This document shows positions 1,106-25,943 of a stretch of 64,000 nt of DNA, one piece after another. Location: assembly GCA_036170915.1 (NCBI GenBank), contig JAVHQC010000008.1:25465-89464 (forward strand), read 5' to 3'. The notes under the pieces are model-generated. The model saw only the letters and a list, made by a program, of their open reading frames with translations. It was not told the DNA's origin and ran no database searches. The position numbers and the translations under genes are program-made. Every line of letters begins with the position of its first letter. Position 1 is the first letter of the stretch. This DNA comes from Cyanobacteria bacterium auto_48_18 (GTDB lineage Bacteria; Cyanobacteriota; Vampirovibrionia; Obscuribacterales; Obscuribacteraceae).

Positions 1106-1250
1106 AGAGCGCGAAAGCTGTTAATCAAGCTTGAGATGGTGTGGCTATATAATTATGTACGGCCTTGCTGCTGGCATTGTTACGATTGTGACCACCGGTC
1201 AAAACATTTCATTTGCCCATCGTCAGTTTGTCTGTTACGGTAGGAAAACT

Positions 1251-1310
1251 ATGACAGCCAAAAACGCCTACAGCTATTACTACTATACCTACTCCCTCGG
1301 GGTCGGCTAG
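1251..1310 (+). CDS. Tyr-rich attenuator leader peptide MTAKNAYSYYYYTYSLGVG (19 aa; not in the ORF track)
   Basis: AGGA RBS at 1242-1245, ATG at 1251, TAG ending 1310. Six Tyr codons within eight positions (TAC AGC TAT TAC TAC TAT ACC TAC). An intrinsic terminator follows before the next gene. Confidence 0.85.
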   Translation: MTAKNAYSYYYYTYSLGVG

Positions 1311-1344
1311 CTGGCGTTGTCATAAAAGTCTAGAACTTATGAAC

Positions 1345-1385
1345 AAAAGCCTTCTCGTCGATCGAGAGGGCTTTTTCTTTGCTTT
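1345..1385 (+). terminator. Intrinsic terminator (attenuator) between the leader peptide and the di-iron enzyme gene
   Basis: AAAAGCCTTCTCG (1345-1357), loop TCGAT, CGAGAGGGCTTTT (1363-1375; one G-U), then TCTTTGCTTT. Ends about 25 nt before ATG 1411. Confidence 0.85.
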
Positions 1386-1410
1386 GAAAATCTAAAAAGG
1401 ATAAATAATC

Positions 1411-24983: not shown

Positions 24984-25943
24984 TTGATGAGTGATTATTT
25001 GTTTGAAATAGACTTCGATGAGCTCGAACTTCTTGACCCGGTTCGGCATAAAAGCCTGGCAGTGAGGGTGACCTATCCACTTAAGTCTTCGGAATCAGTG
25101 GCACTAGCGTCATGGCCCGTAATTGTTTTTTCTCACGGTTTATTGGGCAGCAAAGACGGCTATCAACCGCTGGCACATTATTGGGCCCAGCACGGCTATG
25201 TTGTAATTCAACCCACCCACTATGACTCCGCGGCCCACCGTAAGCCAACTCTAACTGAATTGCGCGATTTGACTCCGTTATTTGTCGGCTGGGAGAGCCG
25301 TCCGCAAGATGTTCTGTTTATCCTTGACCAAGTTGATGCGATTGCGCAGCAGTTGAAAAATTTCAAGGGAGCTCTTGACCACGATCGAATTGGCCTGGGC
25401 GGGCATTCATTCGGTTCGCACACAGCGATGTTGATAGGTGGTGCACAGTTGGCCAGCGGCAATTTTGCCAACTGCAGTGATCGCAATCAAAATGCTATGC
25501 GCACGCCGTTCATGGACGCCAGGCCTAAAGCATTCTTGCTACTTTCACCACAGGGCAGCGGTCGCGCACTGACTGAAAGTGCTGATTTTGATCAGTCAGC
25601 CTGGGACAATTTTGAACGGCCGATGATGATTATCACCGGCACGGAAGACAATGGTCGCAGGCGTCAAGATTATCACTGGCGTTCTGAGCCCTTCAAGCTA
25701 GGCGCCGCAGGTGATAAATATTTGCTCGTTATTGCTGGAGGCTACCATGGCTTTGGTGGTATCACCGGCACCAGATTTTTTGGCTCGGGCCCGGTCAACG
25801 ACGATCATGTGCGCTGGGTGCAAATTTCGACTACGGCTTTTTTCGATTGCTATGTCAAGGGTGATAGGAAGGCAGCCGCAGTCTTAGCTCCAGAGGCGAT
25901 TGTCAAGCTGACCTCCGGCGGTATGACTAGCGAGAAGCGCTGA
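24984..25943 (+). CDS. Alpha/beta hydrolase (predicted dienelactone hydrolase/PAF-AH-like)
   Basis: VFSHGLLG, GYVVI.PTH, RPQDV, GHSFG nucleophile elbow, TGTED and H. Confidence 0.85.
   Translation: MMSDYLFEIDFDELELLDPVRHKSLAVRVTYPLKSSESVALASWPVIVFSHGLLGSKDGYQPLAHYWAQHGYVVIQPTHYDSAAHRKPTLTELRDLTPLFVGWESRPQDVLFILDQVDAIAQQLKNFKGALDHDRIGLGGHSFGSHTAMLIGGAQLASGNFANCSDRNQNAMRTPFMDARPKAFLLLSPQGSGRALTESADFDQSAWDNFERPMMIITGTEDNGRRRQDYHWRSEPFKLGAAGDKYLLVIAGGYHGFGGITGTRFFGSGPVNDDHVRWVQISTTAFFDCYVKGDRKAAAVLAPEAIVKLTSGGMTSEKR

Follow-up and report, generated by a model that had tools for sequence, protein, structure and literature searches.

The leader and the gene that follows it

The window analyzed here is a stretch of 64,000 nucleotides from the genome of Cyanobacteria bacterium auto_48_18, a member of the Obscuribacteraceae (order Obscuribacterales, class Vampirovibrionia), comprising positions 25,465 to 89,464 of contig JAVHQC010000008.1 (assembly GCA_036170915.1). 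Near its beginning lies a gene (1411-2307) for a 298-amino acid protein that the list of open reading frames (ORFs), Pfam and NCBIfam searches and a structural model together suggest to be heme-oxygenase-like (HDO), with a fold resembling that of CADD. It is preceded by a short ORF rich in Tyr codons and by a terminator-like hairpin, an arrangement that an earlier note on this sequence had taken for a Tyr-sensing transcription attenuator. The invariance of the ATG, the Tyr codons, the terminators, the geometry and folding with a ribosome footprint all support that reading. We conclude, with a probability of about 0.8, that positions 1239-1385 are a ribosome-mediated, Tyr-specific leader-peptide transcription attenuator controlling the HDO gene. 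All the evidence is computational, and all the features of the window described below are on the forward strand.

The leader ORF occupies positions 1251-1310. It begins with ATG at 1251-1253, contains 19 codons, ends with TAG at 1308-1310 and encodes the peptide MTAKNAYSYYYYTYSLGVG. Inspection of the sequence and the ORF list confirms six Tyr codons, as a 19-codon Tyr-rich ORF had been proposed here. These are TAC at 1269, TAT at 1275, TAC at 1278 and 1281, TAT at 1284 and TAC at 1290, so that the presumed sensor codons span 1269-1292.

Thirty-five nt beyond the leader stop codon, and ahead of the gene at 1411, a terminator scan finds a hairpin at 1345-1375 with 13 pairs, six of which are G-C, a loop of 5 nt and a T-rich tail that extends to 1385. 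From the scan, folds and pair counts we describe the intrinsic terminator (1345-1385) as a stem of 1346-1357 paired with 1363-1374, closed by the loop UCGAU and followed by the T-rich tail. The scan and fold thus bear out the claim of a strong terminator at this position. The sequence AAGGA (1397-1401, in the context aAAGGAt) lies ahead of the ATG at 1411.

Association of the leader with the HDO gene

A scan of genome contigs found 331 relatives, and the best 80 of these 331 loci, from the Obscuribacterales and the Eremiobacterota/Vulcanimicrobiota, were used for comparison (loci and genomes are numbered L and G, respectively). Three loci with no upstream DNA (L074-L076) and two with a group II intron or a contig end (L018 and L026) were excluded, leaving 75 that are usable. 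In 72 of the 75 the complete module of ATG, Tyr run and terminator lies directly 5′ of the orthologous gene, in both the Obscuribacterales and the Eremiobacterota. Short Tyr-run ORFs with terminators are therefore found where the earlier note had suggested looking for them, upstream of homologues. A script identified a Tyr-run ORF, hairpin and T-run directly upstream in 70 of the best 80 loci (68 distinct sequences). Also counted among the 72 are L035 and L036, in which the ORF is present with a weaker hairpin, and which match the covariance model described below. Two loci have degenerate Tyr content (L089, with SSYYG, and L092), and L080 has no Tyr-run leader. Examples of the encoded peptides are MLVRSSAYYYYYGYFEGSRPGTPLL and MFAQHATVSYYYGRFNRSRPGAPLP from Eremiobacterota, and MKHNNAYRYQYYYRPTRVR and MSRSVNSYYYYYYRGPAGGA from other Obscuribacterales.

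Closer to the window, 16 of 41 related genomes encode the HDO protein, among them 13 of the 14 from the same genus, and a Tyr-run ORF lies upstream in 13 of the 16 loci from these relatives. The genes on either side vary. Upstream we find DUF6986, PanE, a divergent DUF4010, SerRS and others, while the downstream neighbors include a pyridoxal phosphate (PLP)-dependent decarboxylase-like protein, the ornithine cyclodeaminase family, beta-lactamase and HPPD. Because the flanking genes differ so widely between lineages, we assign the leader to the HDO gene.

A covariance model constructed from the alignment matches 13 of the 151 genomes of the class, once in each, and five further strong matches that we checked all adjoin an HDO gene. 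Two weak matches, L114 and L115, have no adjoining HDO gene. No other short ORF in the 4.94 Mb genome of the window combines three or more Tyr codons in succession with a terminator-like hairpin after it.

Some observations were made in passing on loci of this collection. L115 (G258, from another family of the Vampirovibrionia) has on its reverse strand, at about 1500-1650, an Ile/Met-rich ORF MSNHSIMMICIICLPNAAGT, after which come a strong hairpin, its T-run and a gene; this could be a different leader-peptide attenuator. On the reverse strand of L114 (G215), at about 1500-1630, a similar terminator hairpin comes after a short ORF that ends MMSCFYYFSYRTGGL, with no HDO gene beyond it. ORFs with WWW and HHHYHH runs in the genome of the window resemble leaders; they do not precede trp or his genes, and look like chance occurrences. 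In L002 (1-1470; G006, the closest relative of the window) a group II intron lies between the leader-terminator site and the HDO gene. It carries a 454-amino acid ORF with RVT_1 and group II maturase domains and ends about 35 nt before the ATG. L012 (33-105; G013) has a group II intron at the equivalent site (Rfam Intron_gpII, 42.1 bits). Both contigs break inside the intron, so that the leader itself is outside the visible sequence. Some bacterial group II introns insert just after intrinsic terminators.

Conservation of the leader as RNA

In an alignment of 64 leaders the ATG is invariant (64/64). The CGG within a GUCGGC motif (1302-1307 in the window) and several terminator positions are also invariant, and the terminator loop is nearly so, being CCGAC, CCGAU or UCGAU. 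Each of 75 distinct leaders has two to seven Tyr codons, with a median of five and a longest run of two to six, and over the leaders TAT (197) and TAC (166) are both used. A terminator follows every leader. The N-terminus of the peptide is freely variable and its C-terminus is not conserved. The position of the stop codon shifts with respect to the RNA, starting between 5 and 26 nt after GUCGGC, with main classes at +6 (21 of the 75 distinct leaders) and +23 (42). Among 11 species of the genus, mean identity is 97.5% over the 126-127 nt between the ATG and the T-run, compared with 84.8% for the neighboring gene and 64.6% at its third codon positions. From the shifting stop codon, and from the contrast between 97.5% and 64.6% identity, we deduce that the 3′ part of the leader is conserved as RNA and not as peptide.

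The model-based alignment contains 75 distinct rows and three modeled helices, i.e. the terminator, an apical hairpin between regions that we term 1 and 2, and a small spacer hairpin. Pairing in these helices amounts to 84.8%, and does not exceed 49% when the partner strands are slid. Compensatory changes occur in 18 of 26 pairs, amounting to 155 cells compared with 44.5 ± 5 in shuffled alignments, none of 500 of which reached the observed number. The terminator has 96.9% of its cells paired, with compensatory changes in eight of 12 pairs. Corresponding values are 75.3% and six of ten pairs for the 1:2 hairpin, and 71.9% and four of four pairs for the spacer hairpin.

The antiterminator core, in which GUCGGC pairs with the terminator loop and adjacent stem, lies outside the model. 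Its pairing is 90.6%, falling to 40.5% or less on sliding, and in six rows A-U replaces G-C or G-U. In an alignment made with MAFFT, pairing reaches 65.9% for the complete closed structure and 69.5% for the extended antiterminator, compared with at most 45% and 44%, respectively, on sliding. RNAalifold applied to the MAFFT alignment recovered the terminator alone; the outer helices of the closed structure are misaligned there.

Alternative structures of the leader RNA

The minimum-free-energy (MFE) fold of the window closes the whole leader ORF within a long hairpin. Its outer helices comprise 1318-1324 paired with 1250-1256, 1313-1317 with 1264-1268, and 1308-1312 with 1272-1276, so that their 3′ strands together occupy 1308-1324. 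The first of two alternative pairings put forward in the earlier note, between the 5′ part of the leader and the region around 1308-1323, is therefore the MFE structure. At the tip is the 1:2 hairpin. Region 1 (1288-1295) is its 5′ arm, pairing as 1288-1289 with 1305-1306 and 1291-1295 with 1299-1303. Alignment and folds place region 2 at 1299-1315, where it contains GUCGGC (1302-1307) and provides both the 3′ arm of this hairpin and the 5′ strand of the antiterminator. The spacer hairpin (1326-1338) is formed by AAGU (1326-1329) and ACUU (1335-1338) in the covariance-model alignment. The Tyr codons at 1278-1286 lie within an unpaired internal loop (1277-1287) and 1269-1271 is likewise unpaired. 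Nucleotides 1275-1276 are paired in the helix 1272-1276:1308-1312, and 1291-1292 begin the 1:2 hairpin.

A common closed form is found in seven leaders folded individually, from both phyla. The long hairpin links the region of the start codon with that beyond the ORF, and a middle helix pairs the stretch before the Tyr run with the stretch past GUCGGC, leaving the core of the Tyr run in an unpaired internal loop. In the apical hairpin the codons directly after the Tyr run (region 1) pair with a GGAGUCGGC-like sequence (region 2), and the terminator comes next.

The competing antiterminator pairs 1302-1307 with 1357-1362, 1309-1310 with 1354-1355 and 1313-1315 with 1349-1351, such that positions 1349-1362 serve both the terminator and, as its 3′ strand, the antiterminator. 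The second pairing of the earlier note was such an antiterminator. The structure exists, but in a different register, with GUCGGC at 1302-1307 bonded to 1357-1362, which is the last base of the terminator stem together with its loop. Across the leaders the partner of GUCGGC consists of the last stem bases and the loop (GCCGAC; GUCGAU in the window), with lineage-specific extensions into the 5′ arm. The odd conservation of a terminator loop is explained by this pairing.

Folding with a ribosome footprint

We folded the leaders with a ribosome at defined positions, on the assumption that its footprint leaves the RNA available for pairing from 13 nt downstream of the first A-site nucleotide onward. 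For the nascent folds only the RNA transcribed up to the terminator loop was included. When the last Tyr codon of the run occupies the A-site, upstream sequence captures 7-11 nt of the terminator 5′ arm in every one of the 64 leaders, and the resulting structures have energies of -17.6 to -32 kcal/mol. When the stop codon does so, folding of the nascent RNA yields no more than -0.1 to -7.3 kcal/mol, and the terminator arm is left free. Thus the antiterminator forms in 64 of 64 leaders with a Tyr-stalled ribosome and in none with a ribosome at the stop codon, the outcome that a Tyr-sensing leader should give when folded with and without a footprint on its Tyr codons. In the full-length RNA of the window the antiterminator is the MFE structure (-32.0) for A-sites at 1269-1281, and the terminator is the optimum for A-sites at 1284 and 1290.

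The spacing also fits. GUCGGC follows the start of the last Tyr codon in the run by 15-28 nt, with a median of 19 nt, and in 60 of 75 leaders the distance is 18-19 nt. It follows that a ribosome stalled there would mask region 1 while region 2 stayed accessible.

We suggest the following mechanism. The leader RNA would partition between competing forms, one of which is the long hairpin closing the ORF, with the 1:2 hairpin at its tip holding GUCGGC in the 3′ arm and the terminator downstream. When Tyr-tRNA is plentiful the ribosome would pass the six Tyr codons to reach the TAG at 1308. Region 2 would then be either covered or re-paired with region 1, the arm of the terminator would be free, and transcription would stop at about 1376-1385. 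When charged tRNA-Tyr is scarce the ribosome would stall on the Tyr run, melting the outer helices and covering region 1. Region 2 (1302-1315) could then pair with 1349-1362 before the 3′ arm of the terminator is made, and with the top of the 5′ arm and the loop captured in this way RNA polymerase would continue into the gene. If the leader were not translated, the long hairpin would retain region 2 and termination would be expected. We infer, then, that the leader ORF is translated, that ribosomes stall within it, that transcripts end at the terminator and respond to Tyr starvation, and that the downstream gene is induced by scarcity of Tyr-tRNA.

Upstream signals and neighboring genes

The tetramer AGGA (1242-1245), 5 nt before the leader ATG, resembles a Shine-Dalgarno sequence. 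A ribosome binding site had been noted here; the tetramer is present, but it is not conserved in relatives and for that reason may be incidental. By eye, a possible promoter of low confidence comprises TTGCCC (1213-1218), a spacer of 17 nt and TACGGT (1236-1241), the latter ending 9 nt before the ATG. The promoter scan did not list this pair, and its -10 element matches the consensus at only three of six positions. In Eremiobacterota loci examined by eye (L037, L041 and L052) we see TTGCAT or TTGACC, 17-18 nt, TAnnnT, then 10 nt and the leader ATG, and this promoter-like motif is found about 45 nt 5′ of the ATG in several of the loci L019-L097. The layout in the window may, with low confidence, be analogous. 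Because the promoter-like hexamers end 10 nt before the ATG in the Eremiobacterota, the leader ORF may possibly be translated from a nearly leaderless mRNA.

The gene 5′ of the leader (2-1105) encodes a DUF6986 protein and that beyond 2307 a protein of the VOC/glyoxalase family, as identified by Pfam. In other genera of the Obscuribacterales (L032-L038) a gene of 456-468 amino acids for a PLP-dependent decarboxylase-like protein (Pyridoxal_deC, about 100 bits) begins 10-35 nt past the HDO gene, and probably belongs to the same Tyr-controlled transcript.

The putatively regulated protein

The protein encoded at 1411-2307 has only matches below the cut-off in Pfam, to PF14518 (iron-containing redox enzyme, 22 bits) and DUF3865, and NCBIfam contains no family for it. 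A search of PDB sequences with a profile of the family gave no match at E ≤ 1, and a search of the ESM Atlas returned only generic clusters of PqqC, TenA and heme-oxygenase-like proteins. The family is nevertheless large and well conserved, with 3127 homologues at E ≤ 0.001, of which none among the best 120 falls below 64% identity; identity across the two phyla is 65-70%. Some sources label the homologues 'PqqC'. Residues invariant in the alignment include H58, E62, E164, H165, H198, D199, E202, H205 and H208, a pattern of His, Glu and Asp that would fit a dimetal site.

An AlphaFold2 model has a mean confidence (predicted local distance difference test, pLDDT) of 84.3. The best solved structures found by Foldseek are those of CADD from Chlamydia trachomatis (8vag and 1rcw), with template modeling (TM) scores of 0.81-0.82 normalized to the target and 18-19% sequence identity. 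A CADD-like protein of Nostoc comes next, and then TenA, UndA, BesC and PqqC. From the sequence pattern and the model, the protein appears to be a heme-oxygenase-like dimetal protein of a distinct family. Its resemblance to the CADD family of p-aminobenzoate (pABA) synthases is at the level of the fold, since neither NCBIfam nor the PDB sequences gave a match. CADD has been described as a self-sacrificing pABA synthase that cleaves its own tyrosine (PMC13108848; PMC9522330). The protein of the window lacks an N-terminal extension of about 50 amino acids present in most members of the genus (compared with L004-L013), and has a C-terminal tail of about 45 amino acids of low model confidence, with pLDDT below 50 for residues 269-298.

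What the enzyme might do

A Tyr attenuator at this place would imply that the cell wants more of the enzyme when Tyr-tRNA is low. One tentative idea, which we hold to be doubtful, is that the HDO enzyme supplies tyrosine and stands in for TyrA in those lineages where we found neither a prephenate or arogenate dehydrogenase nor a pterin-dependent hydroxylase; the putative chemistry would be that of an O2-dependent phenylalanine 4-hydroxylase or of an oxidative decarboxylase of prephenate or arogenate. We therefore looked at the presence of pathway genes. The genome of the window (G000) is 86% complete, and the incompleteness of metagenome-assembled genomes weakens every failure to find a gene in what follows. 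Chorismate synthase was found. TyrA (PF02153) did not exceed the cut-off in G000, where the weak match is ProC, nor in G006, G009 or G018, and in G000 we found no prephenate dehydratase (PDT), no CM_2 chorismate mutase and no pterin-dependent hydroxylase (PAH). Throughout the genus (G000-G014) PDT was found in 0 of 15 genomes, as was a chorismate-binding enzyme of the TrpE/PabB family, and the genus may be dependent on external Phe and Trp. Eleven members of the genus have a divergent TyrA-like protein. In a further genus (g24), represented by four genomes at least 90% complete that all contain the module, PDT is present in four of four, TyrA in none of four and PAH in none of four.

The Obscuribacteraceae that have no HDO gene contain TyrA and PDT in nine of nine genomes, several as a single open frame of about 455 amino acids. 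In G015, G016, G019, G020 and G024 the matches to prephenate dehydrogenase and dehydratase fall in one frame of about 450-470 amino acids, and so point to a fused TyrA-PheA protein; G023 has them in neighboring frames. Among 121 genomes of Eremiobacterota, TyrA is found in 5 of 18 with the HDO gene and 57 of 103 without, and PDT in 3 of 18 and 44 of 103, respectively. This trend toward complementarity is suggestive; it is weak, and not independent of phylogeny.

Complementarity with PabB, as would be anticipated if the enzyme were a pABA synthase, was also considered and found to be unsupported, as a second chorismate-binding enzyme is no rarer in Eremiobacterota with the gene (3/18) than in those without (14/103). 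Most Eremiobacterota, and all the Obscuribacteraceae examined, have at most one chorismate-binding enzyme, with or without the HDO gene. Neither tyrosine supply nor CADD-like pABA synthesis is established as the role of the HDO protein.

Weighing the evidence for a Tyr attenuator

A number of observations weigh against attenuation by Tyr-tRNA, or reduce the force of the evidence for it. The antiterminator core has few compensatory changes, with nine cells in three pairs (a number reached in two of 500 shuffles), and the energy of its duplex improves only modestly on that of dinucleotide shuffles, with a median z of -1.84 and 26 of 64 leaders below -2, although all 64 values are negative. The outer helices are just 31-45% paired in the MAFFT alignment and depend upon folds of single sequences, seven of which were inspected. 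The compared sequences are related, so that the counts overstate their independence, and the model-based alignment favors the helices of its own model. Even when the ribosome occupies the last Tyr codon, 58 of the 64 full-length leader RNAs still have the terminator as their thermodynamic optimum. For this reason the switch must be kinetic, operating during transcription, as it does in the classical cases. Finally, the regulated gene is not a known tyrosine gene. Since CADD, the nearest solved fold, consumes a tyrosine residue, induction by Tyr scarcity would be hard to rationalize if the chemistry were the same.

In a different view of the locus, the Tyr-rich peptide is the substrate of a CADD-like enzyme, either as a sacrificial donor of tyrosine or as a precursor akin to PqqA and other ribosomally synthesized and post-translationally modified peptides (RiPPs), and the hairpin is a partial terminator that sets a high ratio of peptide to enzyme. 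CADD does cleave a protein-borne tyrosine, and the order of small gene, hairpin and enzyme gene is typical of precursor-peptide operons too. Residue 32, a putative counterpart of the tyrosine of CADD, is Tyr in the Eremiobacterota proteins and Phe in those of the Obscuribacterales. No enzyme of the PabB/TrpE family was found in G000, G003, G227 or G043, while G003 and G043 contain a Pterin_bind match of the size of DHPS. Yet considered as a peptide only the Tyr run is conserved. The N-terminus is variable, the stop shifts by up to about 20 nt relative to conserved nucleotides, and synonymous sites are frozen within the genus; the complementarity between GUCGGC and the terminator loop would have no role. 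There is thus no conserved peptide register such as a RiPP or PqqA-type precursor would have. Nor did a scan of 46 downstream and 38 upstream neighbors reveal radical-SAM, PqqB/D/E or other maturation genes, and at least two chorismate-binding matches occur in 3 of 18 Eremiobacterota genomes with the gene and 14 of 103 without. We consider a peptide substrate to be improbable.

A second possibility retains the attenuator and changes its signal, to the decoding quality of tRNA-Tyr (queuosine or i6A-type modification) or to the general speed of translation. tRNA-Tyr bears both modifications. Runs of Tyr codons have been reported to be sensitive to the modification of tRNA-Tyr, in work concerning RluF (PMC13602947) and in PMC13326639. 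The leaders moreover use both TAT and TAC (197 and 166 codons). Against this, the locus contains no hint of a modification pathway, no connection between the regulated enzyme and tRNA modification is known, and classical leaders of the same build sense charging. We judge this very improbable, and charging of tRNA-Tyr to be the probable signal of the attenuator.

It is also conceivable, at long odds, that the terminated leader of about 130 nt acts chiefly in trans as a small RNA, or is a dual-function RNA, with the ORF and its position being secondary. The very high conservation over the whole 126-127 nt in the genus (97.5%, against 64.6% at third positions) could be understood in this way, and attenuator RNAs with functions in trans are known in other bacteria. 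However, the element is single-copy and tied strictly in cis to one gene in two phyla, and its ATG and Tyr run are conserved; no target in trans came to light, none having been looked for. A chance ORF beside the ordinary terminator of the upstream gene can be dismissed, for although ORFs with amino acid runs before terminator-like hairpins are common for frequent residues (the genome contains 65 such cases for Ser and 61 for Leu), and the promoter and terminator scans taken alone are not significant (four terminator-like sites against 1.8 ± 1.5 expected), the idea is already contradicted by the linkage of the module to the downstream gene while the upstream genes differ (DUF6986, PanE, divergent DUF4010, SerRS), the ATG invariant in 64 of 64 leaders, the covariance-model matches and the uniqueness of the Tyr case in the genome.

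Comparison with known systems

The HDO protein shares with the self-sacrificing pABA synthases CADD and NePabS a helical heme-oxygenase-like fold and a pattern of His, Glu and Asp residues. It differs in having 18-19% sequence identity and no PDB match at the sequence level, so that the comparison is one of folds, and any counterparts of the sacrificial Tyr and Lys are putative. The locus also recalls PqqA and PqqC, where a small gene for a Tyr-containing peptide, with a hairpin, lies beside that for a protein of PqqC fold. Unlike that system there are no pqqB, D or E genes nearby and no conserved Glu-X3-Tyr context, and PqqC ranks below CADD in the fold search.

Among leaders that contain Tyr codons, the nearest parallel is the aroR leader of Corynebacterium glutamicum, located before aroF. 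It contains Phe-Tyr-Phe and responds to limitation of Phe, not Tyr, according to a review (PMC11802643). In common with the leaders described here it has a Tyr codon among its regulatory codons, and it acts by ribosome stalling on an aromatic amino acid gene. It has a single Tyr codon in the same account, whereas our leaders have two to seven (median five) and no run of Phe. A survey of Actinobacteria reports no RNA element for tyrosine genes there, with T-box control elsewhere (PMC1262725).

Searches of the literature returned no description of a Tyr-run attenuator or of the HDO enzyme family; subscription journals were mostly outside the search, and earlier work may exist. On the basis that no such attenuator has been found described, we regard the Tyr-only leader as a new form of leader-peptide attenuation. 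To our knowledge, both phyla are poorly studied and lack cultured model organisms.

A search of Rfam at E ≤ 10 placed no family near its threshold. The leader families for Thr, Leu, Phe, His and Trp score 18-19 bits against thresholds of 50-55 (Thr_leader 18 bits and Phe_leader 18.9, both against a gathering threshold of 55), and there was no T-box match. The build is nonetheless that of trpL, pheL, hisL, leuL and thrL of the Proteobacteria, in which the regulated gene is directly preceded by a short ORF where codons for a single amino acid are repeated. As in those attenuators there is a 1:2 hairpin, a 2:3 antiterminator and a 3:4 intrinsic terminator, and a stalled ribosome would mask region 1. 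The differences are several. Tyr codons alone would be sensed, in hosts that belong to the Obscuribacterales (Vampirovibrionia) and the Eremiobacterota. The loop of the terminator takes part in the antiterminator, and a long hairpin encloses the whole ORF including its start codon. The target is a single HDO gene in place of a known biosynthetic operon, and here the attenuator provides a regulatory clue to a large and strongly conserved family of heme-oxygenase-like enzymes, with testable hypotheses for what they do, either the formation of tyrosine or CADD-like chemistry upon it.

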